Assembly: GCA_965197425.1 (NCBI GenBank) | Contig: CBDANC010000013.1 | Span: 226,243 to 290,242, forward strand | DNA from: Bdellovibrionales bacterium | GTDB lineage: Bacteria; Bdellovibrionota; Bdellovibrionia; Bdellovibrionales; JAUICD01 | Direction: 5' to 3' | Length of the DNA stretch: 64,000 nt | In this document: in pieces, positions 4,346-64,000 of the stretch | Layout of the letters: every line of letters starts with the position of its first letter | Position numbering within the stretch: position 1 is the stretch's first letter | Notes under the pieces: model-generated | Told to the model about the DNA's origin: nothing | The model's input: only the letters and a program-made list of their open reading frames with translations | Database searches by the model: none | Translations under genes and position numbers: made by a program

Positions 4346-4348
4346 ATC

Positions 4349-4505: not shown

Positions 4506-4533
4506 AGGTACTTAAGGCATAATAATATACCAA

Positions 4534-6694: not shown

Positions 6695-6790
6695 TAAAGG
6701 TTGGGAGGAGTTTTTTAAAAAAAATTAAAAAAAAGATATCGGATGCCGGATCCTGATTGCTCGATTGCCCGATTGCCCGATTGCCTGATC
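6695..6790 (-). repeat. GGCAATCG 8-mer array plus A/T tract and TCCTCCCA block (B-element copy)
   Basis: The plus strand shows gattgctc gattgccc gattgccc gattgcct at 6755-6786. The reverse complement parallels 33098-33200 (GGCAATCGGGCAATC ... TTTTTTAAAAAA..TCCTCCCA). Sits in the 269-bp gap inside the carboxylase gene string. Confidence 0.7.
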
Positions 6791-6811
6791 TTTGTATCAT
6801 CGTAACAAACC

Positions 6812-8362
6812 TTATAAGGGTATATTCCCATGTCTTTTTGATGGATTTTTTTGTTTTTTATTTTCGAGCATGCCTAAGTATTGTATTATTCTTTTTCTTG
6901 TTTCTTCCGGCCTTATAATTTCATCAACATACCCTAAGTCAGCAGCACAATATGGGTTAGCAAATGTTTTTCTATAATCCTCAGTAAGCTTTGCTCTTTC
7001 TTTTTCAGGATCTTTAGCTTTAGAAATTTGATCTCGAAAGATAATATTAACAGCACCCTCTGCACCCATAACTGCAATTTCTGCTGTAGGATAAGCTAAG
7101 TTTACATCTGCTCTCAAATGCTTGGAGGCCATAACATCATATGCTCCACCATATGCCTTTCTTGTTATAACAGTGATCTTCGGAACAGTTGCTTCTGCAT
7201 AAGCATAGAGTAACTTTGCTCCGTGAGTTATAATTCCATTCCATTCTTGATCAGTACCAGGTAAAAATCCCGGCACATCTACTAATGTAACTAGAGGTAT
7301 ATTAAATGCATCACAAAACCTTACAAATCGTGCAGCTTTAATTGAAGCCTCTATGTTTAAACAACCAGCCAATACTTGAGGTTGATTTGCAACAATACCA
7401 ACACTTCTTCCATTAAACCTAGCAAAACCTACAATGATATTCTTGGCAAAGTGCTCATGCACTTCTAACAAAAAACCATCATCCACAATAATTTTAATAA
7501 GCTCTTTTATATCATAAGGTTTAACTGGACTTGGAGGGACCAATGAGTTTAACTTTTCATCTATTCTATTTGGATCATCATTTGTTTTAACAGTAGGTGC
7601 ATCGTCCATATTGTTACTTGGGAGGAAGTTTAAAAGCTCTCTAATCATAAGTAAGCAGTGCTTGTCATTGTCAGTGGCAAAATGAGCTACCCCAGATTTA
7701 GTAGAGTGTGCAGACGCACCCCCTAACTCCTCTTTAGTTACCTCTTCATGAGTAACAGCTTTTATAACATCAGGCCCTGTTACAAACATATAACTGGTAT
7801 CCTTAACCATAAAAATGAAGTCTGTGATACTAGGACTGTATACTGCTCCTCCAGCACAAGGTCCCATAATGGCGCTAATTTGTGGAATGGTCCCAGAAGC
7901 CATAGTGTTTTTAAGAAATATATCTGCATACCCACCAAGTGCTTCTACACCCTCTTGGATTCTCGCACCTCCAGAATCATTTAATCCAATAACAGGACAA
8001 CCATTGGTAATTGCTAAATCGAGTATTTTACAAATTTTTTGGGCTTGGGTTTTAGATAAACTTCCACCAAACACCGTAAAGTCCTGACTGTAGACAAACA
8101 CAACTCTTCCATTTATTTTTCCATGCCCTGTTATTACACCGTCTCCTAAAAACTTTTTTTCTTTCATGCCAAAGTTTTCACATTTATGTGTAACAAACCT
8201 ATCCACTTCTACAAAACTATCAGCATCTAATAAAACATCCAGCCTTTCTCGCGCAGTTAATTTACTACCTGTTTTTTGTTTTTTAATTCTCTCCTCACCA
8301 CCACCTTCAAGGGCTAATTTGTTTTTTTCTAAAAGTTCATTTAATAAATTAGTGCTATCCAT
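6812..8362 (-). CDS. pccB: propionyl-CoA carboxylase beta chain / acyl-CoA carboxyltransferase
   Basis: About 516 aa. Family-typical blocks [10 protein letters not shown] and [23 protein letters not shown]-terminal [11 protein letters not shown] at 8362 follows a GGGAGGA SD that overlaps the asnS stop. Confidence 0.9.
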
Positions 8363-8374
8363 GATTCCTCCCAC

Positions 8375-9661
8375 TCAAGGGTAATTCCTTCCATACATTC
8401 TAGGAAATGGTATTGTTTCTCTTAAATGAGATAACTTACAAATCCACGCAACAGTACGCTCTATACCCAAACCAAAACCAGATGAAACAAAAGAGCCATA
8501 TTTTCTAAGATCAATATACCAAGCAAAGTCGTCACGACTCAATTTGTGCTCATCTATACTCTTCAACAATACATCCAAATTATCTTCCCTTTGACTTCCT
8601 CCCAAAAGCTCTCCATAACCCTCAGGTGCAATTAAATCACAGTTCTTACTCTCCCCTTTATCTAAATCTTTTTTCATATAAAATGGGGTTATGTCTGAGG
8701 GATAATTGTGAATAAAAACTGGTTTTTGAAAGTGCTCCCCTAAAAGAGTTTCGTCCTGGGCACCAAATCTGTCACCTGGCTTAAAATCAGGTACTTTTTG
8801 TTTTAAAATTTCACAAGCTTTTTTGTAAGTTATTCTTTCAAAAGGAGTGTCTAAATAACTTTTTAATAGCTTGGTATTTCGCTCTAAAATTTCAAGTTCC
8901 TTTTCGCTAGTTTTAAGTACAAAAGCAATTACATATTTTATTAGCTCTTCAGCCAGATCCATATTTTTCCAATAGTCTATAAATGCAACCTCTGGCTCAC
9001 ACATCCAAAATTCTATTAAGTGTCTTCTGGTTTTAGATTTTTCTGCTCTAAAAGTAGGGCCTAGACAATACACCTTTCCAAATGCAGCAGCTCCAGCTTC
9101 CATGTACAACTGCCCACTTTGGGATAAATAAGACTCTTCATCAAAATACATTGTCTTAAATAACTCAGAAGTTCCCTCACATGCATTTGGAGTAAAAATT
9201 GGGGCATCAACTAGGGTAAAATCAAGATTATTAAAAAATTCTCTGATAGCAGAAATTACCCTGGCTCTTATCCTAATAATAGAGTGCTGCCTTTTTGATC
9301 TAAGCCACAAATGCCTGTGGTTCATTAAAAATTCCACCCCATGTTCTTTTGGAGTGATTGGATAATCATTTGATATACTTAAAATTTGAAGCTTGGTTAC
9401 AGAAAGCTCAAATTCTCCAGGAGATCGCTTGTCGGCCTTAACAATACCAGTGACCTCAACAGTAGATTCATTGGTCAAATCATTAAACTTTTCAAAAGAA
9501 TCCTCACCACAGTTAGATGCCAGAAGCACACACTGACAAATCCCCGTTCCGTCACGCAAAAGCAAAAACTTTATTTTTCCAGAAGACCTTAGAGAATAAA
9601 CCCACCCTTTTAGTGTAAGCTCCTTTCCCACATAACTATTTAGCTGCTCAATATAGACCAT
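8375..9661 (-). CDS. asnS: asparagine--tRNA ligase
   Basis: 428 aa class IIb synthetase. Motif 2-like FRAEKSKTRRHLIEFWMCEPEVAF. C-terminal GFGLGIERTV and PFPR. Confidence 0.9.
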   Translation of the reverse strand: MVYIEQLNSYVGKELTLKGWVYSLRSSGKIKFLLLRDGTGICQCVLLASNCGEDSFEKFNDLTNESTVEVTGIVKADKRSPGEFELSVTKLQILSISNDYPITPKEHGVEFLMNHRHLWLRSKRQHSIIRIRARVISAIREFFNNLDFTLVDAPIFTPNACEGTSELFKTMYFDEESYLSQSGQLYMEAGAAAFGKVYCLGPTFRAEKSKTRRHLIEFWMCEPEVAFIDYWKNMDLAEELIKYVIAFVLKTSEKELEILERNTKLLKSYLDTPFERITYKKACEILKQKVPDFKPGDRFGAQDETLLGEHFQKPVFIHNYPSDITPFYMKKDLDKGESKNCDLIAPEGYGELLGGSQREDNLDVLLKSIDEHKLSRDDFAWYIDLRKYGSFVSSGFGLGIERTVAWICKLSHLRETIPFPRMYGRNYP

Positions 9662-39103: not shown

Positions 39104-40114
39104 TTATCTGTTAATGAGTCTAACACCATTTTTTAATTCATTATATCTGTCAATATCACCTTGAGATAACCCATTTACCGCTTCATAAGAGGGTAATACA
39201 GCCTTCATTATACTTGCATCATCACCTGTACTGTGCGTAATACCTAGAACATGCCCTAACTCATGTGCCATAATACCAACAAAATGTGCAGCACGATGCC
39301 TACTGCCACCACCTGCTCTAAAGCTTTCCAAACTTCTCATAAATGCCTGTTGAACAGGACTGTTTGGAACAGAACAGTTAACAAAGCAATCAAAAAAGAA
39401 TGTGATGCCAGAAGACTCATCACCACTTTCCCTAAAGTCATTTATTACAATGTCACCCTCAATAAACCTACCAACATACGTATACATGGTACACGCAAAA
39501 CCAGATGCCTGATTCCTGTCTCCTATATTGTTATTTTTGTTCCAATAAATAGTAGAGTAGCCATCACCAGAAGCTGATCCCTCGCTAGTAGAAGTAGTTG
39601 GGGGTTCAATTACATTAAAAATATCCTTGCCTATTCCATTTTCCCAAACTGCAATTGCATCCTCTATCAGCTCCTTATACCTGTCACCAACCTCAAGTCT
39701 AGTTGGATCTGAACTATAAATACTATCATCTATCACCAAATCTATAGGAACATCATCACCAGCCCCTGCATTGGATCTATAGGCTAACATAGGATTGTAC
39801 TGCGAAACACCAATGCCCTTACCCCTAGCCGATGAATCATAATTTTCTTGACCAGGCATACCTTGTTTCATATTGCTAGACTTATCTGGAATTGGAATAG
39901 GATCATCTGTGCGAATTATTGTTGTATGGGACGAACTAATACAAGCAGGATCTAGATCAAAAGGGTTAAAAGATGTATAAGACCTGCCACTATGCTTTGA
40001 AGAACCAAGAGAAGGACTAGAAGAATTGTCTATATGACCTGCACAATTCTGATAACCTAAAATCAAAAATACACCCATCAAGGCAAAGGCAAAAACAATC
40101 AACTTAGAACGCAT
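39104..40114 (-). CDS. secreted zinc metalloprotease (metzincin)
   Basis: 336 aa. Signal FAFALMGVFLILGYQNC. HELGHVLGITHS (HExxHxxGxxH) followed by an SIM Met-turn candidate. Confidence 0.8.
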   Translation of the reverse strand: MRSKLIVFAFALMGVFLILGYQNCAGHIDNSSSPSLGSSKHSGRSYTSFNPFDLDPACISSSHTTIIRTDDPIPIPDKSSNMKQGMPGQENYDSSARGKGIGVSQYNPMLAYRSNAGAGDDVPIDLVIDDSIYSSDPTRLEVGDRYKELIEDAIAVWENGIGKDIFNVIEPPTTSTSEGSASGDGYSTIYWNKNNNIGDRNQASGFACTMYTYVGRFIEGDIVINDFRESGDESSGITFFFDCFVNCSVPNSPVQQAFMRSLESFRAGGGSRHRAAHFVGIMAHELGHVLGITHSTGDDASIMKAVLPSYEAVNGLSQGDIDRYNELKNGVRLINR

Positions 40115-44939: not shown

Positions 44940-45887
44940 TCAAAGGATTGGGTTTGACTCTGTATGATTAAGGTTTTGAAATTTTACTTCGTTCTGACCC
45001 AATTTGCTTAAAGCTAATTGTACATAATCTCGATTTATATCGTATCCAATATATTTTCGGCCCTTACCTTGTGCTGACAGTGCAGTAGTCCCACTTCCAA
45101 TAAATGGGTCTAACACTATATCTCCATGAAAGGAGTAGAGTTCAATAAGACGAGAAGGAAGTTCTAAAGGAAAAGGTGCAGGGTGACCAGCTTTCTTAGC
45201 ACTTGTAGTATTAAATTTCCAGATACTCTTTGTGTATTCTAAGAATTGATCTCTATCGATTTCTTGTTTTTGAGAGGAAGTTCTGTTATAAATCCCCTTA
45301 CAAAAAACCAAAATGTATTCATGTACATCCCTAAGTACAGGATTACTAGCTGATCGCCAACTACCCCAAGCACATGAAACACCTGCACTTGCCCCTTTAT
45401 CCCATATGATTTCACCTCTCATAAGAAAACCACAATTTAAGGCTATTTCGATAACATGTGAGTGAAGAGGTATGTAAGGAGTTCTACCTATGTTTGCAAT
45501 GTTGATACATGCCCTACCACCTACTACCAACACTCTGTAAACTTCATTCAAAACATCAAATAGCAAGCTTTTATACTCGTCAAAGGATAAATCACTATCA
45601 TAATCTTTGCCCACATTGTAAGGAGGAGAGGTCACCATTAAGTGAACAGATTTATCTGGCAAATGCTTCATATTTCTACTATCATGGCAGTAAATCACAT
45701 CAACTTTATCCGGGCAGTTCCAATCGTAATTAACTTCACTTTGTGTTGCTTTTTTCTTCTCATACATTTTACGACCATAGAACCTAGAAGAATCATGACC
45801 TTCCCTTGTGGGTGTGCCAAAAGATTGGGTTTCGCTTTTATTTGTACTTTTTTTGCGTTCTATTTTTCTTCCCATAGTTCTATCCAT
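44940..45887 (-). CDS. DNA methyltransferase, beta class (motif IV before motif I), SPPY
   Basis: MVTSPPYNVGKDY (motif IV) at about aa 85 and VLDPFIGSGTTALSA (motif I) at about aa 260. This is the N6_N4_Mtase architecture. Confidence 0.85.
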   Translation of the reverse strand: MDRTMGRKIERKKSTNKSETQSFGTPTREGHDSSRFYGRKMYEKKKATQSEVNYDWNCPDKVDVIYCHDSRNMKHLPDKSVHLMVTSPPYNVGKDYDSDLSFDEYKSLLFDVLNEVYRVLVVGGRACINIANIGRTPYIPLHSHVIEIALNCGFLMRGEIIWDKGASAGVSCAWGSWRSASNPVLRDVHEYILVFCKGIYNRTSSQKQEIDRDQFLEYTKSIWKFNTTSAKKAGHPAPFPLELPSRLIELYSFHGDIVLDPFIGSGTTALSAQGKGRKYIGYDINRDYVQLALSKLGQNEVKFQNLNHTESNPIL

Positions 45888-45931
45888 TTCTTATACAAAA
45901 ACTCTTGCTTATTTAATTTTTTATCTCTCAT

Positions 45932-46375
45932 CTAATTAATCGATAGATATAATGTGTCAGAGTGGCTTTTCAACTGCTTTAATGCTTTGCTTTGTATTTC
46001 TATACCCCTGGCATTAGTGCCACGTTTTGGAACTTTTAAATATTTTTCTTCCCCCAAAATTTTCAATATTTTCTTCTGAATATCTACAGGAATAAAATAA
46101 AATCCACCCGCAATTGTATTCCATTGAATTTGAACTAACAATAAATGACAAGCTGGAACATATTCTTCAACAAATATTTTTGTTTTATCCCAATCAACAG
46201 TCCAAGCGATCTTTACTCCAGCATCACTAGAATCAGTTTTAGTTTTGATTGAAATTGGCTGATCCTTCACATAAATATCTGTTTCATGTTCAGTTGTATC
46301 TGGAAAAGTAACAGCTTTGCTTCCAAAAGTGTGCATTAAAAGAGCTGCCAAAACTCTCTCCCTTGCAACACCCAC
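45932..46375 (-). CDS. putative small type II restriction endonuclease
   Basis: 147 aa, 44 bp upstream of the methyltransferase on the same strand. PD-(D/E)xK-like spacing ETDIYVKDQPISIKTK. No other recognised motif. GTG start. Confidence 0.4.
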   Translation of the reverse strand: MGVARERVLAALLMHTFGSKAVTFPDTTEHETDIYVKDQPISIKTKTDSSDAGVKIAWTVDWDKTKIFVEEYVPACHLLLVQIQWNTIAGGFYFIPVDIQKKILKILGEEKYLKVPKRGTNARGIEIQSKALKQLKSHSDTLYLSIN

Positions 46376-50251: not shown

Positions 50252-52327
50252 ATGAAAAAATTTAAACAACATGACAAATTTGTTTTAATTCAAAACATTT
50301 TTGATCTACTTGCACTTATTTCGATGGTGATTTTATTTTTTCATTTTGCACCGAGTGATCTGTTTAACACACTACCCGCCACCGGAGGAGACACAGGTTC
50401 ACATTTTTGGCCAGTATACACACTCCACCACTACGGTATACCAAACTTAGATTTCAGACTATGGAATCCAGGTAACATAGGTGGAGAACCACAACTGATA
50501 CACTACTTTCCACTACCCTTTATTTTGATGGCACTTCTAGGATTTATCATGGATTTAGGACTAGCATTCAATTTGGGCACAGCGCTTGGAACATTTGCTT
50601 TACCCTTTGTTGTATATGCTTCTATTAGAATTATAGGACATAAATTCCCTGCTCCCATTATCACGGCTTTTTTCACAATACCCTTCATATACAGTGAAAC
50701 TTACTCCATATTTGGTGGAAATTTTTTATCTACTATGTCTGGGCAGTTTGCACATGCATATGCTATTTGTTTTTTAATACTAGCTGTTGCATTTATTATA
50801 AGAGCTATTAAAAAAAATCGTGTTTCTGCTGCAGGGATTATCCTGCTATCCATGACAGCCCTGTCACATGCGTATATATTTTTAATAGCACCATTCTTTT
50901 TTCTGTCTATTTTGGTGTTAGCTAGAAAAGAAGAAAGATTTAAATGGTTAAAAATATTTTTTGTAACAGGGGTGATGACCTTGCTTATAACTTGTTGGCT
51001 GATATGGCCAATGATAGACCACCAACCTTGGATGACCCCCAATCCTATGGTATTTGGAGTCGATGGGTTCAAAGATGTTTTTGTCTCAAGAATGTTATAC
51101 CCAGCAGGCATTTTTATGTTTCTTGCTACTATTGTTTTACTGTTTAGAAAACAAGGGCAAATTTTTAGAGATGTTTTGGTGTGGGTGATCCCTGCCATAA
51201 CTTATGTTGGTTTATTTTTTCTTCTACCAAAATTTGGACTAGTGGATGCAAGGGCATTGCCACAAACTCTTTTATTTAGCTTAATAGCTGCAGGTATGCT
51301 TACCGCTTGTTGTATTAAGTCTACCAAGTACAGAATCATACCTTTCATAATGGTCCCTATAATATCAGCAAGTTTGGTTACTTGGACTATTTTACATGTG
51401 AAGGCTTTACCTCATTGGATGAAGTGGAATTACTCTGGCTGGCAGGACAAAAAACACTATGTGTTTGTTAGGTCAATATCAGAAGCTTTAGAACCTGGAT
51501 TTGATAAGCCTAGAGTTATCTACGAACATCATCCTGAATTGAATCAAGCAGGTACTACAAGAGTTTTTGAAATGTTACCTTACTTTGCCAAAAGAGCCAC
51601 TATGGAAGGGCTTTATCTACAAAGCTCTCTGTTGTCTCCTGCATCCTTATATCTACAATCGCAAATTAGCACAAATCCTAGCTGTGCTGTAAAACAATTT
51701 AAGTGTACAAATCTATCCTTTGATACTTTAAAAAATAAAATGGATCTTAATGCTGTAAGCTCAATTATCGTTATAACAAAAAAGGTGAAGGATAGTGCCA
51801 ACAATTACAAAGATTTAGTGCTTCACAGTGCGCATGGCCCTTATAGTATTTATACTTTAAAGTATGAACCTAAATATGCAACACCACTAACTGGAAATGC
51901 TAGTTTGATGGAATACAAAAATGAGTGGAGATTTGAAGCACATGATTGGTTTATGAATTATGACGGAGAAAATAATTGGAAAATAGTTGATCTCCCTGGA
52001 TTAAATAATTCTGAATTTATAGAGGCTATTTTGAGTAATAAAGTTTCTGACTGCAACACAAAAGTTGAAGTAGATTTTAATGGATTTGAGTTTTCAACCT
52101 CCTGTCCTGGAGTGCCACATATATTGAAGTTTGCATATCAAGATTCTTTTAAGAACTCATCTGATCTTCCTATGTACTTAGTAGCTCCTGGTATGATTGG
52201 CTTTATTCCAAATGAGGAAAAGACTATTTTTGAGTTTGGACAGAAGTTAAGTTGGAAAGTTGCAGATTATGTTTCTTTATTAAGTTTCATACTTATCTTT
52301 TTTGTAAGACAAAAATTCCGTCCCTAG
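50252..52327 (+). CDS. large polytopic membrane protein with C-terminal soluble domain (GT-C-like architecture, function unknown)
   Basis: 691 aa. About 12 predicted TM helices in the first 400 aa, followed by a roughly 270-aa hydrophilic domain and a terminal TM. The fold assignment is only an architectural impression. Confidence 0.55.
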   Translation: MKKFKQHDKFVLIQNIFDLLALISMVILFFHFAPSDLFNTLPATGGDTGSHFWPVYTLHHYGIPNLDFRLWNPGNIGGEPQLIHYFPLPFILMALLGFIMDLGLAFNLGTALGTFALPFVVYASIRIIGHKFPAPIITAFFTIPFIYSETYSIFGGNFLSTMSGQFAHAYAICFLILAVAFIIRAIKKNRVSAAGIILLSMTALSHAYIFLIAPFFFLSILVLARKEERFKWLKIFFVTGVMTLLITCWLIWPMIDHQPWMTPNPMVFGVDGFKDVFVSRMLYPAGIFMFLATIVLLFRKQGQIFRDVLVWVIPAITYVGLFFLLPKFGLVDARALPQTLLFSLIAAGMLTACCIKSTKYRIIPFIMVPIISASLVTWTILHVKALPHWMKWNYSGWQDKKHYVFVRSISEALEPGFDKPRVIYEHHPELNQAGTTRVFEMLPYFAKRATMEGLYLQSSLLSPASLYLQSQISTNPSCAVKQFKCTNLSFDTLKNKMDLNAVSSIIVITKKVKDSANNYKDLVLHSAHGPYSIYTLKYEPKYATPLTGNASLMEYKNEWRFEAHDWFMNYDGENNWKIVDLPGLNNSEFIEAILSNKVSDCNTKVEVDFNGFEFSTSCPGVPHILKFAYQDSFKNSSDLPMYLVAPGMIGFIPNEEKTIFEFGQKLSWKVADYVSLLSFILIFFVRQKFRP

Positions 52328-52528: not shown

Positions 52529-53248
52529 TTATCTCGTAGGGAATACTACACCTATTGCTAGACTCTTATTTTCCTCTTGCTGTAACGCAGATAATGTAAA
52601 ATCCATATCATCAATGAAGCTAGAGTCATTGCCGTCTGAATTAAATGCCACTCGATTATCTCTAGTTAATAAACCTTTAACTAAATCAAAAGTTTTCCAT
52701 GCAGCTAAACCTGATAGAGTAGCAACACTTATGTTTCGAACAGTGCTATTCCCCCAATCTACACCAGAAGCCAAATCAATAACTTCCCACACACGTAAAC
52801 CACCAAAACCCAATAAACTTACTAATGCAGCAGTATCATATCCTTTTGCAGCAAATGCAAAAGTACCAACCGCAGTACCCAACTGACCAAAAGTAAAAAT
52901 AGCTCCATTACTCTCGGACCAACGGCCTTGAATGGCATGACCCACACCAAATGGAACAAATGACCCCACACTTAATCCTCCTATAGGTCTATATGACTCA
53001 TCTTCTGAGTCATTAACACTTAATTGGCTGTAAATTTGATGATAAGAATTATTGTTATACTCCAACTTACCCATAACAAAAGACTCCACCGCATTTCTTA
53101 TGGCTTGATGCCCTACAGCTTCATCTTGGGTACTCGCTACAAATAAAATGACCTCATCATCATTTAAATTAAAATTTAACTTGTCAGATGCACTAGCTGT
53201 GTAGCTTCCAAAAATAAAAATTATTAGAAAAATTTTTTTTAAACTCAT
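52529..53248 (-). CDS. exported protein with Gly-rich (glycine-zipper-like) membrane segments
   Basis: ATG at 53248 after a GGAGGA SD. Signal KKIFLIIFIFGSYTASA. GGLSVGSFVPFGVGHAIQG and GQLGTAVGTFAFAA segments. Confidence 0.6.
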   Translation of the reverse strand: MSLKKIFLIIFIFGSYTASASDKLNFNLNDDEVILFVASTQDEAVGHQAIRNAVESFVMGKLEYNNNSYHQIYSQLSVNDSEDESYRPIGGLSVGSFVPFGVGHAIQGRWSESNGAIFTFGQLGTAVGTFAFAAKGYDTAALVSLLGFGGLRVWEVIDLASGVDWGNSTVRNISVATLSGLAAWKTFDLVKGLLTRDNRVAFNSDGNDSSFIDDMDFTLSALQQEENKSLAIGVVFPTR

Positions 53249-53335
53249 GGCAAAATCCTCCAAGATACTCAGTAAAGTATACAACCTATTTTAAAAAATT
53301 TTGAAAAAAAATCTAGGACTAGACTTTTGACCTTT

Positions 53336-53507: not shown

Positions 53508-56500
53508 CTAACTTCCAGATGATTCTACACACTGACCAGTATTGGTATCTTCATAGATATGCGTACGGTAATAGTTCTGTTGGTCATCTATTTCCCCCAG
53601 ATAGCCATACTCACCTTCCATGTTGCCTATACTGTTGCCCTCACTGGATACGATAGACACAATATCTTCTAAATGGCTGTAGTCTTTTGAATAAAAGTAG
53701 TTTCTTAATTTAATTCTATAGATAGCATTGCTACACACATAGTGATCTTGATCTTGTATTCTAATTTGTGATTTATACAGTCCATCCGCTAGATCTCTAT
53801 CTACATAGATCTCAACAGTTATCTCACCATTACCATCAGCTATTGGATTTCCTAATAAGTTATCTCCAACTCCATCTGCATTGTCATCTATTGGTTCACA
53901 TTCTTCATAGTTGGTGACATCATTTGTACCATCGTCATTAGTATCACAGTCCACTTCCACTAATTCAACCACCTTAGCTACCTCAGATTCAGAAATTCTC
54001 TTGTTGAAATAGTTGCCACTGCTAATGGTTTCTTCTGGATCGACATAACCAACAATACCATCAAATAAAATTTCTATTGTGTGATCTTTTGGTACTATGT
54101 ACTCTATATTACTTCCTGATCTTGAAATAATACTATCATCACTGTCATCTTTAAAAGAAATGGCTGCGGTTGGAATGCCAATACATCCCACTTTATCACC
54201 AACATCATCTATAACTGTAAACACTCCACTACTGCCAGCATCGCATGCATCTTCTTCTAGATGAAAGATTATATGAGTTGCTACTGTTGGCAGATAACCA
54301 TCCACCAAATTATCTGCCCTATATGCGTCTGGAGCATCAGATTTAAAGACATAGTTTTCTAGTTCCACTACATGATCACCTGTGATCGTTTTAGTACAAG
54401 TTTCAAGAATTGGATTACCGTTCTCATCTAATAACGGATTACCATCCTCATCACGTGCTATGCATTCATATTCAATCTCAGAAGTAGCACTTAATCCATT
54501 ATCAGGAGGTTCTATTATGATATAAGACCCATTTGCATCAACACCCACAGTAATTTTATCTATGGTATATTCTGTTCCCATTTTATTTCTTCCGGTAGTA
54601 CAATCTGTGTAGTCCTGTGCTGAATCACTGTCACATTCATCTATTTGTCTAATATCAACCATATCAAACACTCTTTGTAAGCTCAGTGTTTCCCAACCTT
54701 GCTCTACTATATAAGCAATTTCTCCGTTAAATCTAATTGTTAAAACAGCATCTCTAGGTACAACAAATGCACGGCCAGCTTCCCTGCTAATATTCTGTCC
54801 ATCACTAGTTGTAAATTCAAATGTAGGAGTTGGAAGTTTTATACATTCAGCATTTTGACCATCTTTTCTAAGCTGGAAGTAACCCAATTCACCTCTAGCA
54901 CATGGGGTATTACGTGTACCAACATAAAATGCAGAGGTTCTAGTAGCTCTCTGTAGATAATCACTTCTATTATCACTAACTGAAACCGCCTGAGCATCTG
55001 AATCTCTAACATAACCCTCTATCTCTACAGAGTAATCTCCATCTAGATAACCACCAACAGGAGGCTCAATTTTAATACGATGATTACCTGAAACAACCTC
55101 AACACTTAACTGTTCTAGACCTATTGAATCACCAATTAAATTACTACCTCCATTAACACTAGAAATCTCAAGCATATCCAACAAATGATTATTAGATAAT
55201 ATCTCAAAATCTCCATCATCATCTATGTGAGAAACTTTAGAGTCAAAGTCTACTGTAATAACAACATCATCAGCACCATTAGACGAACTATAAGAAACAT
55301 CAACCACAGAAAGCTCTATACACTCAGCATCCTGACCATCTCTTTTAAGCTGGAAGTAACCTGATTCACCTCTAGCACACGGAGTATTACGTGTACCAAC
55401 ATAAAACGCAGAAGTCTTCGTAGCTCTTTGTAGATAATCACCTCTATTATCACTAACTGAAACTGCCTGAACATCTAAATCTCTAACATAACCCTCTATC
55501 TCTACAGAGTAATCTCCATCTAGATAACCACCAACAGGAGGCTCAATTTTAATACGATGATTACCTGAAACAACCTCAACACTCAACTGCTCTAGACCTA
55601 TTGAATCACCAATTAAATTACTACCACCATTAACACCAGAAATCTCAAGCATATCCAACAAATGATTATTAGAAACTTGCTCAAAATCTCCATTATCATC
55701 TAAGTAAGAAACCGTAGAATCAAAATCTACCGTAATAACAACATCATCAGCACCATTAGACGAACTATAAGAAACATCAACCACAGAAAGCTCTATACAC
55801 CCAGCATCCTGACCATCTCTTCTAAGTTGGAAGTAACCCGCTTCACCCCTGGCACATGGAGTATTACGTGTACCCACATAAAATGCAGAAGTCCTCGTAG
55901 CTTTCTGTAGATAATCATCTCTATTATCACTAACTGAAACCGCCTGAGCATCTGAATCTCTAACATAACCCTCTATCGATACAGCGTAATCCCCATCTAG
56001 ATAACCACCAACAGGAGGCTCAATTTTAATACGATGACTACCTGAAACAACCTCCACACTCAACTGCTCTAGACCTATTGAATCACCAATTAAATTACCA
56101 CCACCATTAACACGCGAAATCTCAAGCATCTCCAACAAATGATTGTTAGATAAACCCTCAAAATCTCCATCACCTTCTATATGAGCAACTCTGGAATCAA
56201 AACCTACCGTAATAACAACATCATCAGCACCATTAAACGAATCATAAGAAACATCAACCGCAGAAAGCTTTATACACTCAGCATCTTGACCATCTTTTCT
56301 AAGCTGGAAGTAACCCGATTCACCCCTAGTACAAGGAGTTTCTGGATTCTCCACATAAAATACAGAATGCTTCTTGATTAGAGATAAATATCTAGTCCTA
56401 CTGCTATCTCCAGTACCTTCACTATTAAGAATGGAGTTTGCGTCCGAAAGCTTAGCATAATTTTCTATCGAAATCTCATAGTCATTCTCATCATAACCCC

Positions 56501-59105
56501 CGCTTGGCGGCATGACCCTAATGTAAGTATTACCACCAGAAGTTAAACCAAAGCTAAGGTTAGCAACCCCTATTGTATCCCCAACAAGATTACCTCCACC
56601 AACAGGTCCAATTTTCACCATATCCAAGAGACGATGAATGGAAAGTTCTTCCCATATAAACGTTCCTCCACCAGTAGTATTTCTTCCAAAATATGCAATT
56701 TCAGAATCAAATACTATGTCAATTACAACATCGTCTGAACCATCAGAATCATCACTTGTTACACCATCACTGGTGTATTGAAAGGAAACCTCAGAAAGCT
56801 CGATGCATCTAAGACTATTACCACTAGCATCTTCAAGCTGGAACCAACCCTCTTCACCTCTGGTACAAGGGGTCTCTGGATTACCCACATAAAATACAGA
56901 ATACTTCCTAGATACAGATAAATATCTAGTCCTATTCACGCTGTTGGCAATCAAATTGCCTTCTTCCAACCTAGCATAATTCTCTACTGAAACTTCATAG
57001 TTACCTTCCTCGTAACCTCCGCTTGGGGGCATGATCCTAATATAATGATTATCATCATCAGTTAAACCAAAGCTAAGGTTAGCAACCCCTATCGTATTTC
57101 CAACAAGATTACCTCCACCAAGTGGTCTTACCACAAGCATATCTAATAGACGATGTATCGAAAGATCTTCTAAAACAAAATCATTACTACCACCACTAAC
57201 TCCTCCAAGATACAAGACTTCAGAATCAAACACTACGTCAATTACAACATCACTTGAACCATCTGAAGAACTTGATGTGGTACCATCATTTGTGTAGCTA
57301 AAAGAAACAACGGAGAGTGATATACACCTGATCTTTCTGCCATCATCATCCACAAGCTGAAACCAACCCCGCTCACCCCTAGTACAAGGGGTCTCTGGAT
57401 CGCCCACATAAAATACAGAATGCTTCTTGATTAGAGATAAATATCTAGTCCTACTGCTATTACTACTGTTAGTAATAAGCCTTTCATCTGACAACTTAGC
57501 ATAATTTTCTACCGAAACTTCATAGTTACCTTCATCATAACCCTCGCCTGGCGGCATGATCCTAATATAATGGTTACCACCAGAAGTTAAACCAAAGCTA
57601 AGGTCATCAACTCCTATTATATCCCCAACAAGATTACTTCCACCAAGTGGTCTTACCACAAGCATATCTAATAGACGATGTATCGAAAGATCTTCTAAAA
57701 CAAAACCACTTCCAGATCTTCCAAAATATGCAATTTCAGAATCAAACACCATGTCAATTACAACATCGTTTGAACCATCAGAATAATCGCTTGCTTCACC
57801 ATCATTTATGTACTTAAAGGAAACTCTAGGGAGTTTTATGCAACTAAGTTTATTTCCACTTTCACCTTTAAGTTGAAACCAACCCCGCTCTCCATTAGTA
57901 CACGGTGTTATAGGTTCTCCTGCAAAAAATACAGTTTCCTCTTGTACTTCACTTAAATACTTATCCTTATTACTACTCGCAAAAATTAAAGGTACATCTT
58001 CTGCTTTTGCGTAATTTTTCGAAGTGATCTTATAACTACCTGCTGGATAAACACCATTCAGTAATTGAGGAGGTTTGACAGTTATATGTGACTTGCCGCC
58101 CTCATAATCAACTTCAAAATCATCGACCAAAATTAACTGACCTACAAGATTTCGATTATCTTCATTAGTTATCTCTATCATATTATAGAGATCAATGCTT
58201 TTAGATAGTGCAGAACCTCTTCCATCTTCATCGAGATAAGATACGTGAGCATCAAAGTTAATATGGATATAAACGTCTTCCTTCGGCTCATTTGATGTGC
58301 CAGAAATAGATGTGCCACTGCTATCTTTAAAATCGAACTCTACTTCAGGAAGTTTAATACAGTTGTATTCATCTTTGCCCCCACTACTTTCCTTTTCTAG
58401 TAGAAAATAGCCACTTAAACCCGAATTACAAACTTGTTCATGACCTGATAAGTCATCACAGGCAGATAGACCAAGAGAAGCAAGTATCAACATTGCTCCA
58501 CTAAGCACGGGTTTTATTTTGTCACCTAAAACACGAGAAACAGGCCTTGCAAATTTTAACCCTCTGACAGGAGTTAGTAAAAATAAAGACTGTGCAACTG
58601 AAAACTTAGTCCCCTCTCTATTACCTGGGTTATTTACAGCATAAGTATCATCTCGATTGTTTAAATCTAGATTGCCAAAAGCAGATTCACCAAAAGATTT
58701 ATATTTCTGTTCTTCAACTTTTTTAATCCCCAGCCTATTACAGTAGAGATTATTTAACGATTCATCCGAAGAACATAACGAAGACACAAATTTAAGGATG
58801 GAATCTTCGCACTGTTTAGTGTCTATTAACAGATTACCATCTTCATTTGTTTGTTGTAACTTATCAAAAATTTCTTGTGAAGAAAGCTTGTCACCATCAA
58901 TTGAATAGGCAACTTCTGATAGAATATCACATCTTGCTACCGCATTTGCTATGAGGTCCAGGTCATGCTCACTTGGCTGGGTGTAACTTTCTAAATTACC
59001 TGAAGCTGGATTCAACACCGGCGGAGTGTCCGTGCTTTGAGCATGTACATAACCTGTGAGTATAAAAACTAATAAAAAAGCTACGTAGCTTAAAAGCCCT
59101 TTCAA
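53508..59105 (-). CDS. giant exported repeat protein (1865 aa, 9 modules)
   Basis: TTG start after a GGGGGA SD. Signal MKGLLSYVAFLLVFILTGYVHA. About 170-aa Cys-containing N-domain. Internal lipobox LASLGLSAC at aa 208-216. Then nine Cys-bracketed modules: aa 226-402, 403-574, 575-747, 748-925, 926-1084, 1085-1243, 1244-1402, 1403-1621 and 1622-1865. Confidence 0.85.
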   Translation of the reverse strand: MKGLLSYVAFLLVFILTGYVHAQSTDTPPVLNPASGNLESYTQPSEHDLDLIANAVARCDILSEVAYSIDGDKLSSQEIFDKLQQTNEDGNLLIDTKQCEDSILKFVSSLCSSDESLNNLYCNRLGIKKVEEQKYKSFGESAFGNLDLNNRDDTYAVNNPGNREGTKFSVAQSLFLLTPVRGLKFARPVSRVLGDKIKPVLSGAMLILASLGLSACDDLSGHEQVCNSGLSGYFLLEKESSGGKDEYNCIKLPEVEFDFKDSSGTSISGTSNEPKEDVYIHINFDAHVSYLDEDGRGSALSKSIDLYNMIEITNEDNRNLVGQLILVDDFEVDYEGGKSHITVKPPQLLNGVYPAGSYKITSKNYAKAEDVPLIFASSNKDKYLSEVQEETVFFAGEPITPCTNGERGWFQLKGESGNKLSCIKLPRVSFKYINDGEASDYSDGSNDVVIDMVFDSEIAYFGRSGSGFVLEDLSIHRLLDMLVVRPLGGSNLVGDIIGVDDLSFGLTSGGNHYIRIMPPGEGYDEGNYEVSVENYAKLSDERLITNSSNSSRTRYLSLIKKHSVFYVGDPETPCTRGERGWFQLVDDDGRKIRCISLSVVSFSYTNDGTTSSSSDGSSDVVIDVVFDSEVLYLGGVSGGSNDFVLEDLSIHRLLDMLVVRPLGGGNLVGNTIGVANLSFGLTDDDNHYIRIMPPSGGYEEGNYEVSVENYARLEEGNLIANSVNRTRYLSVSRKYSVFYVGNPETPCTRGEEGWFQLEDASGNSLRCIELSEVSFQYTSDGVTSDDSDGSDDVVIDIVFDSEIAYFGRNTTGGGTFIWEELSIHRLLDMVKIGPVGGGNLVGDTIGVANLSFGLTSGGNTYIRVMPPSGGYDENDYEISIENYAKLSDANSILNSEGTGDSSRTRYLSLIKKHSVFYVENPETPCTRGESGYFQLRKDGQDAECIKLSAVDVSYDSFNGADDVVITVGFDSRVAHIEGDGDFEGLSNNHLLEMLEISRVNGGGNLIGDSIGLEQLSVEVVSGSHRIKIEPPVGGYLDGDYAVSIEGYVRDSDAQAVSVSDNRDDYLQKATRTSAFYVGTRNTPCARGEAGYFQLRRDGQDAGCIELSVVDVSYSSSNGADDVVITVDFDSTVSYLDDNGDFEQVSNNHLLDMLEISGVNGGSNLIGDSIGLEQLSVEVVSGNHRIKIEPPVGGYLDGDYSVEIEGYVRDLDVQAVSVSDNRGDYLQRATKTSAFYVGTRNTPCARGESGYFQLKRDGQDAECIELSVVDVSYSSSNGADDVVITVDFDSKVSHIDDDGDFEILSNNHLLDMLEISSVNGGSNLIGDSIGLEQLSVEVVSGNHRIKIEPPVGGYLDGDYSVEIEGYVRDSDAQAVSVSDNRSDYLQRATRTSAFYVGTRNTPCARGELGYFQLRKDGQNAECIKLPTPTFEFTTSDGQNISREAGRAFVVPRDAVLTIRFNGEIAYIVEQGWETLSLQRVFDMVDIRQIDECDSDSAQDYTDCTTGRNKMGTEYTIDKITVGVDANGSYIIIEPPDNGLSATSEIEYECIARDEDGNPLLDENGNPILETCTKTITGDHVVELENYVFKSDAPDAYRADNLVDGYLPTVATHIIFHLEEDACDAGSSGVFTVIDDVGDKVGCIGIPTAAISFKDDSDDSIISRSGSNIEYIVPKDHTIEILFDGIVGYVDPEETISSGNYFNKRISESEVAKVVELVEVDCDTNDDGTNDVTNYEECEPIDDNADGVGDNLLGNPIADGNGEITVEIYVDRDLADGLYKSQIRIQDQDHYVCSNAIYRIKLRNYFYSKDYSHLEDIVSIVSSEGNSIGNMEGEYGYLGEIDDQQNYYRTHIYEDTNTGQCVESSGS
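54900..56330 (-). repeat. three near-identical 477-bp in-frame tandem repeats inside the giant gene
   Basis: Encodes modules aa 926-1084, 1085-1243 and 1244-1402, each 159 aa. Most positions are identical, for example VVSG(S/N)HRIKIEPPVGGYLDGDY in all three. Confidence 0.85.
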
Positions 59106-59383
59106 AAATCCCCCAAAAAATAAGATACCCCAGTGGAGACATTCGGATAGTTCGTTCCACTACTTTAATTTATAGCCATAGATGTTAGTTTTATTTTTTG
59201 ATTTTCTGTACGCTCAGACGTCTTTATTTAAACTTAGCCTCATAAATTCTTGAATAAAGCCATAACAACAGTTAACTCATATCAAGGTTAACTTAACTGC
59301 TCATGAACCTATGTTAAACTTTGAATTAAGAGTGATAAACACCCAAGATAAAAGGATTAAAAGGGCATATAGGGACAAAAGGT

Positions 59384-62300
59384 TTAAGGCGTTGTTCGGT
59401 AGTACTCGATATGATTATCCAAAGATTCTAGATAACCATCGTTACCCGTTATATTATCAACTTCTTCTATCACACCGGATAGATGATCGTAGTCCTCTGC
59501 GTAGTAAAAATCTTTAAGTATGATCTTATAGTACTCACCACTGCTAAACGATGATCCTGTTCTCTGCTCTAGCGTTATGCGTGATCTATATGGTCTTCTA
59601 GATCTATCTTCGTCTTGGTCATCATCATAATAAGTTGCTAATACGTTGTTAGCTGTAGTTTCTGTACAGTCTTCATCAGGGATATTAGTTGTACAAGTTA
59701 ACTTTCTAATATCGACAATATCGGATATATCCCTATTAGTAAGTTCCTCAGCAGGTGCAGATGAGTCTATTTTAGCTATAAGACCATCAAATATAATTTC
59801 TATTGTATGGTCAAGAGTTACAGTATAAATACCATTTCTCTTTGCAATACTGACATCATCACTGTCCATGAAAGAGATCTCTGCAGTTGGAATGCCAATA
59901 CATCCAACCCTAATTCCAGTGCTATCTCTGAGCGTAAAATATCCATCTACCTCAGCATCACATTCATCCATATCCAAATGGAAAATCTCATGTGTTATTG
60001 TATAAGGCAAGAACCCGTCATCTCCTGTAAGATTATCAGCTTGAATTGCCCATGGAGCGTCTACTGTGTAAACATAGTTCTCTAGCTCAATTCTGTAGTC
60101 AAAAGCAGGTACAGTTGTTGTAACAATGGTACAGTTTTCTTCACCATTTACAGTAGTACATATCTCTTCTTCTACTTCAGCAACAGCGTTGTACCCGTCA
60201 TCCGGAGCATATATTCTAATAAAAGATTGTTTTCCTGTTTTGCCAACAAGTATTTTATCCGAAGTTATGCTTGTTCCTATTTCATTAACATCAGAATAAG
60301 TACAATCAGTATAATCATCACTGTCAGTGTCACAATTGAACAAAGCCCTGATATCTACCATATCAAAAACTCTGTTTGCATCTAAAGTCTGCCACCCTCT
60401 CTCACCAATGTAGGAAACTTCTCCATCAAATGTAATTGTTAAAATTGCATCGCTAGGTATTTTAAACACACTGCCAGGAGTTTTTGAAATAGGATTCCCA
60501 CTTTGTGTTGTATAGCTAAAGGTGGCTATCGGACGCTCGATACACTTAAGATTGTTGTCATCTTTTTCAAGTTGAAACCAGCCTGCCTCACCTCTAGTAC
60601 AAGGTGTTTCACCTGCACCCACATAGAATGCAGACGTCCTACTTGTCTGAGTTAAATACTCTGCTCTATTATCACTTGAAGAAACCAAGGAAGCGTCCGA
60701 AGTCTTGGCATAGTTTTTAACCATAACTTCATAAATACCCTCTACATACTTCTCAAATGGTGGGTTTATTGTAATACGACTACCTTTACTAACACTAATC
60801 TGCTCCAGACCTATGGTATCTCCAATAAGATTATCATCACCAGCTCTTAGCTTCACCTCTACCATATCTAACACATGGTGTTCTTTGAGTTCTTCCCAAT
60901 TAGCCTGCTGATCAATATAAGCAACCTTTGTGTTGAAATCTACTGTAATAACAACATCATCAGAACCAGTAGACGAACTATAAGAAACATCAACCACAGG
61001 AAGCTTTATACACCTGGTTCTTGAACCACCTAACTCAAGCTCAAAGTAACCGATCTCATGCCTATCACATGGTGTTTCTGGATCACCCACATTAAAAACA
61101 AAGTATTTTGTGGTTTGGTCTAAATATCTATCTATACCACCAGCACCATCGCTACCCTGAACTGTATAAATTAAATTAGCATCATCAACCTTAGCATAAT
61201 TTCTTATAGAAACCTCGTAGTCACCATCATCATAACCACCAGCTGGAGGCATCACTCTAATGTAGCTATCACCAGAAGATGTTGTACCAAAACTAAGATT
61301 AGCACTATTTATTTCATCACCAATAAGCTCAGTACTATCTTGCTTTATCGATACCATTTGCAGCAGACGATGCGAAGAAAGCTCTTCCCAAGTATAGAAT
61401 TCTCCACCAGGACTACCCGGCCCTATATACGCAACCTCAGAACCATCAGCATCAAACGCTATATCAATAACAATATCCCTAGCTCCAACAGGATTTTGAC
61501 CATTTTGATTAGTATTCCTAAATGAAACTTCAGGAAGTTTGATACATCTCACTCTGTTTCCTTCTCCATCAACAAGTTGGAAGTAACCTGGCTGACCCAA
61601 AGTACAAGGGTTAGTTTGAGTACCAACATAGAAATAAGTTGCTACTGATACACCATTAACATAATCAGCTGTATTCTCACTTTTGAAAATAAATCCTGCA
61701 TCAGCAACTCTAGTATAATTTTTCAATGTAATCTTGTAACTATCCTCGGAATAACCACCTATAGGAGGACCTATAATTATAGAATGTTGTCCGTTGCTGA
61801 AATTCACTCTCAACTGCTCTAAACCTATAGATTTACCAACCAGATTTGCACCACCATCAACAGGAGTAATTTCAAGCATTCCAAGTAATCTACCAGCTAC
61901 CATCTCCTGCCAACCAGTTTCATCTATATAAGCTATCTCAGAATCAAACAAAATAGTTATAACATTATTAATACCACCAAAATCACTATGAGTAAAAATG
62001 GGTTCAGGAACCTTGATACACTTACCAAGAGACTCATCTTCGTTATACAATTGGAAATAACCTAATCTACCAGTAGTACAGTTATTACTTATCTCCCCTA
62101 CAAGAAATACCGAGTATTTTTTAGCTAAAACTAAGTACCTAGCTATACCAGATTCACCAACACCTTCACTATTAACAATTAAATTTGCATCACCTTCTTT
62201 TGCGTAGTCTTCTATCGAAATTTCATAGTCACCCTCAGCCCAACCATTTTCAGGAGGCATAATCCTAATATAAGTATTACCACCAGAAGTTAAACTAAAA

Positions 62301-63823
62301 CTAAGATTAGCAATGCCTATTTCACCATCACCTACAAGCTCTCTACCATCTCGTTTTACTGATACCATTTGCAATAGACGGTGCAAAGAAAGTTCTTCCC
62401 AAGAAAAGAAATTAGCATTATCTCGTCCCAAGTATACAATTTTAGAGTCAAACACTATATCGATCACAACATCATTAGAACCATCTGGTTGAGCCAAAGT
62501 GACACCACCACTTGTGTAATTGAAAGCAACTTGAGGCAGTACTATACACTTAAGTTTACTACCGTTACTGTACTCAAGCTGAAAGTAACCAGGCAAACCC
62601 TCGGTACAAGGAGTACTAGGCTGGCCTGAATAAAAGACAGCTTGCTCTTGAGCCACCTGAAGGTATTCATTTATATTATTACTACCTGAGATTAGACTTA
62701 AATCTTTTCGTCTTACATAGTTTTTTACTGTTATTGTGTGACTACCTTCTGGATAAAAACCATCTAGCAAAGCTGGTGGCTTGATGGTGATATATGATTT
62801 ACCATCCCTGACACCAACTTCAAAATCATCCAACAGAACAAAGTCTCCCACCAAATTTACTGTGTCTTCATAATTTACCTCTACCATATCATACAGATCC
62901 AAGCTTTTAGATAACTTAGAACCTCGTCCATTTTCGTCAATGTAAGACACAATGGAGTCAAACTGAATATTGATATGCATATCTTCTTTAGATTCTTGTG
63001 AAGATCCTGAAATAGGATTACCATCCGAATCGGTGAAAGTAACTTCTACATCTGGTAATCTTATACACCCACTTTGTGGACCCTCACCGTTTCCTGCATC
63101 AGATGTTTTTTCTATTAAAAAATAGTTGCTAAGACCAGTGCTACACGCTTGTTCAGGACCCGTTAAATCATCACAAGAGGACAAGCCTAGGGAAGCCAAA
63201 ATTAACATCGCCCCACTTAAAACTGGTTTTATTTTGCTGCCCAAAATTTTTGATGCAGGCCTTGCAAGTTTTAACCCTCTTACCGGAGTTAGTAAAAATA
63301 AAGACTGCGCTACTGAAAACCTAACTTCTTTTGTATCGTCTTTTACATTGTTACTTGCAAAACGACTATTATCCCAATCGTACAAATCTAGATTACCAAA
63401 AGCAGATTCACCAAAAGTTTTATAATTGTCTTCTGATTTATCTGCATCATCAATTTTTTTAATGCCAAGCCTATTACAGTAAGTATTGTTTACTAACTCA
63501 CCTGAAGAACACAAAGATGATACAAATTCTAAAATAGCATCGCCACATTCCCTGCTGTCTATTAACAGATCACCATCTTCATTTGTTTGTTGTAACTTAT
63601 CAAAAATTTCTTGTGAGGAAAGTTCGTTGCCATCAATTGAGTGGACAACTTCTGATAAAATATCACATCTTGCTACTGCGTTTTCTATGAGGTTTAGATC
63701 ATGTTCACTTGGCTGGGTATAACTCTCTAGACTGCCTGAAGTCAGATCCAAGCTCTGGGCATTTACATAGCCAGCAAACACAAAAGCTAATAAAAAAGCT
63801 ACATAGCTTAAAAGCCCTTTCAA
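59384..63823 (-). CDS. giant exported repeat protein, paralog (1479 aa, 7 modules)
   Basis: TTG start after an AGGGGGA SD. Same signal, N-domain and internal lipobox (LASLGLSSC, Cys at aa 217) as the downstream gene. Seven modules of the same type. Confidence 0.85.
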   Translation of the reverse strand: MKGLLSYVAFLLAFVFAGYVNAQSLDLTSGSLESYTQPSEHDLNLIENAVARCDILSEVVHSIDGNELSSQEIFDKLQQTNEDGDLLIDSRECGDAILEFVSSLCSSGELVNNTYCNRLGIKKIDDADKSEDNYKTFGESAFGNLDLYDWDNSRFASNNVKDDTKEVRFSVAQSLFLLTPVRGLKLARPASKILGSKIKPVLSGAMLILASLGLSSCDDLTGPEQACSTGLSNYFLIEKTSDAGNGEGPQSGCIRLPDVEVTFTDSDGNPISGSSQESKEDMHINIQFDSIVSYIDENGRGSKLSKSLDLYDMVEVNYEDTVNLVGDFVLLDDFEVGVRDGKSYITIKPPALLDGFYPEGSHTITVKNYVRRKDLSLISGSNNINEYLQVAQEQAVFYSGQPSTPCTEGLPGYFQLEYSNGSKLKCIVLPQVAFNYTSGGVTLAQPDGSNDVVIDIVFDSKIVYLGRDNANFFSWEELSLHRLLQMVSVKRDGRELVGDGEIGIANLSFSLTSGGNTYIRIMPPENGWAEGDYEISIEDYAKEGDANLIVNSEGVGESGIARYLVLAKKYSVFLVGEISNNCTTGRLGYFQLYNEDESLGKCIKVPEPIFTHSDFGGINNVITILFDSEIAYIDETGWQEMVAGRLLGMLEITPVDGGANLVGKSIGLEQLRVNFSNGQHSIIIGPPIGGYSEDSYKITLKNYTRVADAGFIFKSENTADYVNGVSVATYFYVGTQTNPCTLGQPGYFQLVDGEGNRVRCIKLPEVSFRNTNQNGQNPVGARDIVIDIAFDADGSEVAYIGPGSPGGEFYTWEELSSHRLLQMVSIKQDSTELIGDEINSANLSFGTTSSGDSYIRVMPPAGGYDDGDYEVSIRNYAKVDDANLIYTVQGSDGAGGIDRYLDQTTKYFVFNVGDPETPCDRHEIGYFELELGGSRTRCIKLPVVDVSYSSSTGSDDVVITVDFNTKVAYIDQQANWEELKEHHVLDMVEVKLRAGDDNLIGDTIGLEQISVSKGSRITINPPFEKYVEGIYEVMVKNYAKTSDASLVSSSDNRAEYLTQTSRTSAFYVGAGETPCTRGEAGWFQLEKDDNNLKCIERPIATFSYTTQSGNPISKTPGSVFKIPSDAILTITFDGEVSYIGERGWQTLDANRVFDMVDIRALFNCDTDSDDYTDCTYSDVNEIGTSITSDKILVGKTGKQSFIRIYAPDDGYNAVAEVEEEICTTVNGEENCTIVTTTVPAFDYRIELENYVYTVDAPWAIQADNLTGDDGFLPYTITHEIFHLDMDECDAEVDGYFTLRDSTGIRVGCIGIPTAEISFMDSDDVSIAKRNGIYTVTLDHTIEIIFDGLIAKIDSSAPAEELTNRDISDIVDIRKLTCTTNIPDEDCTETTANNVLATYYDDDQDEDRSRRPYRSRITLEQRTGSSFSSGEYYKIILKDFYYAEDYDHLSGVIEEVDNITGNDGYLESLDNHIEYYRTTP

Positions 63824-64000
63824 GAATCCCCCTAAAAGTAATATCCCTCAATGGGAATATTCGGATGGTTTGTTCTACTATGTTAGCGTATAACCATAAA
63901 TTAGTTTTATATTTTTGATTTTCTGTATGAATATCCTTAAGACAAAGGACAAGAGACAAGATCGGCATCGTGTCCAGAGCTGGGTAATTCGCTAGACCAA

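Follow-up and report, generated by a model that had tools for sequence, protein, structure and literature searches.

Two tandem giant genes of a Bdellovibrionales bacterium encode protease-less members of a stalked metalloprotease family built from divergent Big_5-like modules

What do two giant, repetitive genes that resemble nothing in the domain databases encode, and do they amount to a system of their own? The question arises from a 64,000-nucleotide stretch of DNA from a Bdellovibrionales bacterium (assembly GCA_965197425.1, contig CBDANC010000013.1, forward-strand positions 226,243 to 290,242; hereafter the window, whose own numbering is used below), in which two intact open reading frames (ORFs) with TTG starts, A (1865 residues) and B (1479 residues), lie next to each other on the minus strand. 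Searches of the whole A and B proteins against Pfam, NCBIfam and PADLOC give no match. A first-pass annotation, made from the letters alone, had described the pair correctly to the nucleotide and had proposed that it forms an undescribed two-gene system, a lineage-specific surface or adhesion apparatus built from a module without relatives among known repeat families. The comparisons reported here place A and B instead as protease-less members of a family of stalked reprolysin-like metalloproteases; an exported surface or adhesion role remains plausible for them, but not as a self-contained system of two genes.

The two frames are too long to have arisen by chance in DNA of ~36% GC, being uninterrupted over 5.6 kb (A) and 4.4 kb (B). 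The pair arose by tandem duplication of a single lineage-restricted gene type. The ~225-residue head proposed to be common to both is indeed so, A residues 1–225 and B residues 1–226 being 70.7% identical (blastp, E = 1e-115). Upstream leaders of ~105 nucleotides are ~80% identical as well (TACAGAAAATCAAAAA...ATCCGAAT...GGGGGATTT) and in both genes contain a Shine-Dalgarno-like GGGGGA; the duplication therefore included the promoter or 5' leader.

Relatives of A and B are few. Among 5.8 billion proteins a word-indexed search returned only eight clusters, and searching for homologs with the head profile yielded just two more sequences, both short fragments. An exhaustive search with the module profile through 1.84 billion cluster representatives gave 70 matches, ~45 of which contain the composite module in full (profile positions 1–165); many of these are fragments, and all belong to this family. 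The composite stalk module thus appears, from these sequence searches, to be confined to a small lineage, and on this point the earlier annotation was right. Complete members follow one plan: a signal peptide, a head with four Cys, a helix ending in a lipobox, 1–12 modules and, in most, a C-terminal reprolysin-like metzincin with the zinc-binding motif HExxHxxGxxH and a TIMSY Met-turn, matching Reprolysin_3/4/5 above the Pfam cut-offs (the zinc site is present in P0003, P0005–8, P0011 and others, P numbers here denoting individual proteins). This HExxHxxGxxH/Met-turn catalytic domain is absent from A and B, and tblastn finds none elsewhere at the locus. The idea that A or B is a truncated or frameshifted protease gene was rejected because no protease-like sequence lies downstream of the pair or near it. 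The same protease-less state is found in P0012 (1622 residues) and P0015, and probably also in P0059 and P0031; P0015, from another assembly, is 80% identical to the tail of A over 460 residues, with no frame breaks.

The window has a fairly close relative, as follows from the synteny of five consecutive genes at 75–89% protein identity between window positions 2813–9661 and L006:1232–7659 of OZ241914.1, the 1.6-Mb chromosome of a Bdellovibrionales metagenome-assembled genome (MAG; L numbers denote family loci). This chromosome carries 12 paralogs of 768–2462 residues with 1–12 modules, and so large a set of paralogs in a genome of this size suggests that the family is central to dealings with prey or host in such small-genome predators or symbionts. 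A head–metzincin gene at L006:9929–12832 lies ~2 kb past the syntenic block in the MAG and is absent there in the window. One paralog, P0004/L003, keeps the protease domain with a degenerate zinc site (ARQLGFNLGLNND); at L001:5575–14224 a 1448-residue copy with an intact zinc site is followed in tandem by the 1407-residue degenerate P0004. A family-wide regulatory leader was considered and rejected, as the MAG paralogs lack the leader of A and B and are preceded by duplicated upstream regions of their own.

Some features of the surroundings of these paralogs may be recorded here. At L004, L006, L008, L009 and L010 of OZ241914.1 a convergent ORF borders the head–module–metzincin gene and belongs to a family of ~1000–1250 residues without a Pfam match (for example L004:12815–16643, minus strand), and a member of that ORF family also stands beside a head gene, in a different arrangement, at L007 and L011. 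The copy at L009:16500–16790 has a pilin-like GFTMLE N-terminus, and L010:17772–19112 has an N_methyl motif. Together, the head–module–metzincin gene and its flanking ORFs have the look of a multi-gene cassette that has undergone at least seven duplications in the 1.6-Mb genome. P0003 (2276 residues, 10 modules and a protease) is encoded on L012 (ERZ25070167 ctg376648), a second contig of the same sample with a coverage of 8.9x against 27x, where it lies between Transposase_31 genes and adjoins a Type ISP restriction enzyme.

A second branch of the family, from high-GC organisms, has no head and begins with an N-terminal lipoprotein signal (pattern LSC/GDxxxEPP, as in ...ILILSC/GDAGVEPP), followed by 2–5 Big_2 repeats and 1–2 composite modules. 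Pfam recognizes a protease in three of the five scanned; P0026 has the zinc motif only, and P0027 neither zinc motif nor Pfam protease. Where the protease is present the composite module adjoins it, and classical immunoglobulin (Ig)-like stalk domains can evidently stand in for further modules. The members P0017, P0022 and P0036 (Big_2 repeats, module, Reprolysin_3/4/5) are homologous to A and B, with which they share the module family, the motif after the lipobox and the Ig-like stalk, but A and B have no protease, and their lipoprotein signal is preceded by a Sec signal and a head.

The modules themselves number nine in A and seven in B, as had been counted from the sequence, and are delimited by their opening cysteines (A: 226, 402, 574, 747, 925, 1084, 1243, 1402 and 1621; B: 227, 406, 582, 740, 919, 1075 and 1288). 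All 12 canonical modules are recovered, at E values of 1e-60 to 1e-74, by a hidden Markov model (HMM) derived from them. The consensus motifs proposed for them were drawn too tightly: the opening motif fits seven of nine A modules but only two of seven B modules (a looser pattern fits 9/9 and 6/7), and the internal-block motifs fit 3–5 A modules but no B module. In a set of 40 family modules, no position other than C1, C20 and one Tyr is fully conserved. Module order is colinear in the two proteins (A1 with B1, 55% identity; A2–4 with B2/B4, 46–61%; A5–7 with B5, 50–54%; A8 with B6, 48%; A9 with B7, 31%), which bears out the polarity ascribed to the arrays. In A, a 477-nucleotide tandem repeat coincides with modules A5–A7, and its 91% matches indicate recent amplification within the gene; it is a likely site of length variation.

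All modules of A and B are acidic, and the last two of each protein are, as had been noticed, longer and richer in Cys: A8, A9, B6 and B7 have 219, 245, 213 and 192 residues, net charges of -23 to -36 and 4–6 Cys. They are full-length divergent copies of the module, with hhalign probabilities of 99.9% and 98.1% against the family module profile. Terminal modules of the A8–A9 type are kept in P0015 and partly in P0012. Two DxDxDG-type motifs occur in A9 only, and a search of the terminal modules for DxDxDG Ca-binding loops or thrombospondin type-3 repeats gave no Pfam match and no PDB match.

What kind of domain the module represents becomes apparent at the level of profiles. Each module is composed of a ~20-residue lineage-specific hairpin, a divergent Ig-like core of the Big_5 type and a ~30-residue connector of two helices and a strand; the hairpin would be closed by a disulfide, judging by the invariance of its two Cys. 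Routine annotation does not reveal this composition. Pfam searches of 40 single modules gave noise only, apart from one module that matches Big_5 at E = 0.059; Big_5 (PF13205) has no match on A or B at E ≤ 1 and its gathering score of 23.6 bits is not reached; and a PDB sequence search with the module profile gave only weak matches to Ig E–F strands. The exhaustive search did give a connection, in that the matches other than the complete modules cover only profile positions 26–131, repeatedly and in register, and all nine of these proteins that were scanned are Pfam Big_5 repeat proteins. When the family module profile was aligned with 13 Big_5 units (picked via module-profile matches; 12 of the 13 pass Pfam Big_5), hhalign gave a probability of 97.7% (E = 2.2e-12; 93 aligned columns, spanning module positions 20–131), and column-shuffled and reversed controls gave 0.1–0.3%. 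Reciprocally, an HMM of the Big_5 units matches family modules along almost the entire domain, with scores of up to 38 bits. With P0052, a Big_5 set of looser match that the module profile had also found, the probability was 64% (E = 6.5e-5).

The 12 canonical modules of the window, aligned with Big_5 by themselves, reach only 68% (E = 4.6e-5), and the link of these particular modules to Big_5 is therefore transitive, through the family, of which the window copies are the most divergent members. The first-pass annotation had set a profile-profile probability above 95% as the limit beyond which the module should no longer be held unrelated to Ig-like repeats, and the family profile exceeds that limit. 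"Unrecognised" is thus a fair description with respect to routine annotation (Pfam and NCBIfam give nothing) but not at profile level, and the case shows how a standard Ig-like block such as Big_5 can diverge past the reach of routine annotation. An AlphaFold2 (AF2) model of module A5 is mostly beta (mean predicted local distance difference test score, pLDDT, 92.6; predicted template modelling score 0.85). For the hairpin, the closest Pfam entry is Ephrin_rec_like (PF07699; GCC2_GCC3-type Cys hairpins), with a best score of 14.7 bits (E = 0.027) below the 23.1-bit cut-off; this match, at B 732–761, overlaps the hairpin of module B4, a faint precomputed match is also present on the L001 paralog, and the resemblance is treated as a lead only.

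Comparison with described Big_5 proteins shows both what is shared and what is peculiar to this family. In common are the pattern I-x-I-x-F-D/S-x-V, a variable middle and T-I-T-I-x-P-x(3-5)-Y-x-x-G-x-Y-x-V in the module core, as well as tandem arrays in large exported proteins; unlike them, the unit of the A/B family adds a Cys-pair hairpin and the connector of two helices and a strand to give a composite of 155–180 residues. Big_5 domains reportedly also form the N-terminal domains of M. tuberculosis LdtMt2. The best PDB sequence match of the module profile (E = 0.0038) is to GhpA, the grappling-hook protein of Aureispira (PDB 9flp), in which five in-register repeats match the E–F strand region. 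GhpA, too, is an extended Ig-like filament made by a predatory bacterium, but the match extends over only ~30 residues per repeat and each repeat is insignificant by itself; it does not speak for a common architecture and serves as a lead only.

The N-terminal part of the proteins carries the most conserved stretch of the family. The Sec-type signal peptide ends [HN]A/Q, with A22 and Q23 invariant in 16 heads. The head is modelled by AF2 with moderate confidence (pLDDT 54.7 overall, and 73–86 for residues 41–130 of A, a ~90-residue domain with four Cys), and it finds no relative in Pfam, among PDB sequences or by Foldseek. A linker, acidic and of low AF2 confidence, leads from it to an uncharged segment (13–23 residues in the head-bearing family) and a loop with 3–8 K/R and 0–1 D/E, and thence to a near-invariant KPVL[SN]GA[ML]L[VIL]LA[ST][LF]G[LV]S[SA]C followed by D, G, S or N and then D; 11 positions between K198 and C216 are invariant in 16 sequences. 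After its hydrophobic and basic region the element ends in a sequence conforming to the lipobox [LVI][ASTVI][GAS]C (A, KIKPVLSGAMLILASLGLSAC; B, ...LSSC). Every head-bearing member therefore has within one ORF a Sec signal and, ~190 residues on, a lipoprotein-type signal; the lipobox Cys is residue 216 in A and 217 in B, far from the N-terminal placement usual for such a signal. The first-pass annotation had overlooked this internal lipobox. An internal translation start at this point was rejected: the candidate codon at -19 is ATA, GTA, GTT or GTG in 14 genes, so no start codon is conserved, and the codons of the segment vary synonymously. The head-less relatives have the same Cys-Gly-Asp...Glu-Pro context at their N-terminal lipoprotein signal, and from this shared context the internal element probably descends from such a signal.

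The one topology that could be squared with an extracytoplasmic repeat array would place the head outside, have the uncharged segment re-enter the membrane, leave the basic loop inside and run the lipobox helix from inside to outside. A more specific and rather tentative possibility is a precursor with two signals, in which the Sec signal exports the head and Lgt/LspA cut at the internal lipobox, giving a head tethered to the inner membrane and a lipidated stalk; the head might then be a dedicated escort or sorting module. Such two-product processing, if true, would add a hitherto undescribed pathway to lipoprotein biogenesis and could change textbook expectations. A literature search found no precedent for an internal lipobox and nothing on Bdellovibrionota metzincins.

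How might A and B work? The reading favoured here, with moderate confidence and on sequence comparison, is that they are exported, probably lipid-anchored stalk proteins with a binding tip, in the manner of adhesins. Export would begin with the Sec signal peptide, followed by the small four-Cys head and the lipoprotein-type signal with its lipobox near residue 216. The chain of seven or nine modules, each passing from hairpin to predicted Ig-like sandwich to two helices and a strand that leads into the next hairpin, would act as a spacer that keeps a C-terminal effector away from the lipid anchor; Cys pairs like those of the A and B modules are typical of extracytoplasmic proteins. Most complete relatives carry a reprolysin-like zinc protease at the end of the same chain (1–12 modules, or Big_2 repeats plus 1–2 modules). 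Its place in A and B would have been taken by the two enlarged acidic modules, whose extra disulfides and Ca-binding-like loops would make up the binding tip, so that the proteins may form adhesin-like surface filaments, tens of nanometres long by rough estimate rather than computation, on a bacterium with a small genome and a predatory or host-associated life. The length of the stalk could be altered by unequal recombination among modules that are nearly identical. The protease-less pair offers a natural comparison of a protease tip with a putative binding tip on one scaffold.

A general parallel is found in LigA and LigB of Leptospira, which are lipoprotein-anchored Big_2 arrays. They resemble A and B in the lipobox anchor, the long bacterial Ig-like array and binding towards the distal end, but differ in having Big_2 rather than Big_5-like repeats, in having no known sequence relationship to them and in not being known to have a head or an internal lipobox.

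Several observations weigh against an anchored stalk with a binding tip. The predicted lipobox is internal, ~190 residues after the Sec signal peptide, and the Asp residues at +2 and +3 after its Cys are an inner-membrane retention signal in E. coli, although that rule may not hold here. The Pfam Big_5 HMM stays below threshold on every module, the alignment of the window modules alone with Big_5 is weak, and in a Foldseek search of the PDB with the A5 model the top matches are Ig-like but also weak (template modelling score at most 0.41). Known binding domains show no match to the terminal modules in Pfam or to the A8–A9 tail in the PDB, and no neighbouring gene in the window was found to recur with the family.

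Among the alternatives, release of A and B without an anchor, as a coat, an S-layer-like matrix or secreted binders, with the lipobox helix serving only as a cleaved or vestigial signal, is unlikely yet survives best. Big_5 is described in Pfam as the SbsA-type Ig domain of S-layer and large secreted proteins, and A and B are very acidic, both of which would suit release. Against it, the lipobox helix is the most conserved stretch of the family, and the head-less relatives begin with a canonical lipoprotein signal that has the same motif after its Cys.

It is quite unlikely that A and B are non-catalytic regulators or competitors of the protease paralogs, perhaps decoys for substrates, inhibitors or the export route, and not adhesins. 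The head, lipobox and modules that A and B have in common with the active metzincin paralogs would allow this, and P0004, which has a degenerate zinc site and adjoins an active copy in tandem, suggests that such proteins tend to become pseudo-enzymes. A and B, however, are without the whole protease domain and not merely its catalytic residues, and their two specialised terminal modules are a gain that P0015 retains and P0012 retains in part.

Improbable, too, is retention of A and B in the inner membrane as lipoproteins that span or structure the periplasm. This possibility is raised by the Asp residues at +2 and +3 in A, B and P0012, since Asp at these positions blocks Lol-dependent release in E. 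coli; the rule is established for Enterobacteria only, and Bacteroidota use acidic residues behind the Cys as a signal for surface export. At +2, G, S or N is found in paralogs and relatives, and an array of 7–9 Ig-like modules would, by rough estimate, exceed a typical periplasm. That A and B are protease genes in decay, or unexpressed remnants of such genes, as the missing protease domain might suggest, is barely credible given 1865 and 1479 uninterrupted codons in AT-rich DNA with invariant Cys pairs, the unbroken frame of the 80% identical ortholog fragment P0015, and the leader with its Shine-Dalgarno-like element kept by both genes with no protease remnant downstream.

Table 1. Features of the A/B locus in window coordinates.
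Feature	Coordinates	Strand	Description
Gene A	53508..59105	-	1865 residues, 204 kDa, isoelectric point 4.3; signal peptide, head, predicted lipobox, 9 modules
Gene B	59384..63823	-	1479 residues, 163 kDa, isoelectric point 4.3; same plan as gene A, 7 modules
A leader, ~105 nucleotides	59106..59210	-	Ends GGGGGATTT-TTG
B leader matching A leader	63824..63930	-	Upstream of B
A residues 1–22, Sec-type signal peptide	59040..59105	-	Ends VHA/Q
B residues 1–22, signal peptide	63758..63823	-	Ends VNA/Q
A residues 41–130, helical head domain	58716..58985	-	Four invariant Cys: C59, C99, C111, C122
B residues 35–124, helical head domain	63452..63721	-	Four Cys: C53, C93, C105, C116
A residues 168–216	58458..58604	-	Uncharged 13-residue segment, basic loop (6 K/R), hydrophobic helix, lipobox LSAC, then DD
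B residues 169–217	63173..63319	-	Uncharged segment, basic loop, hydrophobic helix, lipobox LSSC, then DD
A modules 1–7 (residues 226–1401)	54903..58430	-	Each a putatively Cys-stapled hairpin, divergent Big_5 Ig core and two-helix connector
A modules 8–9 (residues 1402–1865)	53511..54902	-	Enlarged, acidic, 4 extra Cys each; putative distal tip
B modules 1–5 (residues 227–1074)	60602..63145	-	Canonical modules
B modules 6–7 (residues 1075–1479)	59387..60601	-	Terminal modules, enlarged, acidic, Cys-rich
477-nucleotide tandem repeat	54840..56339	.	3.1 copies, 91% matches; modules A5–A7

Two ORFs next to the pair (52529–53284 and 50252–52327) were considered as partner genes and rejected, neither having a counterpart at the loci of MAG OZ241914.1. 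The first, of 251 residues on the minus strand directly downstream of A, begins, judged by eye, like a signal peptide, has Gly-rich, hydrophobic segments towards its C-terminus, and gives no Pfam or PADLOC match; the second, on the plus strand and adjoining the A/B pair, encodes a polytopic membrane protein of 691 residues matching PTPS_related (PF10131, E = 4e-20). Elsewhere in the window, a separate small metzincin-like ORF of 336 residues without head or modules lies at 39104–40114 on the minus strand (Peptidase_M10, E = 1.1e-6; Reprolysin_4, E = 6.7e-4), and a restriction-modification pair, consisting of an N4/N6 DNA methylase (E = 6e-45) and a ThaI-like restriction endonuclease (E = 4e-40), occupies 44940–46375 on the same strand.

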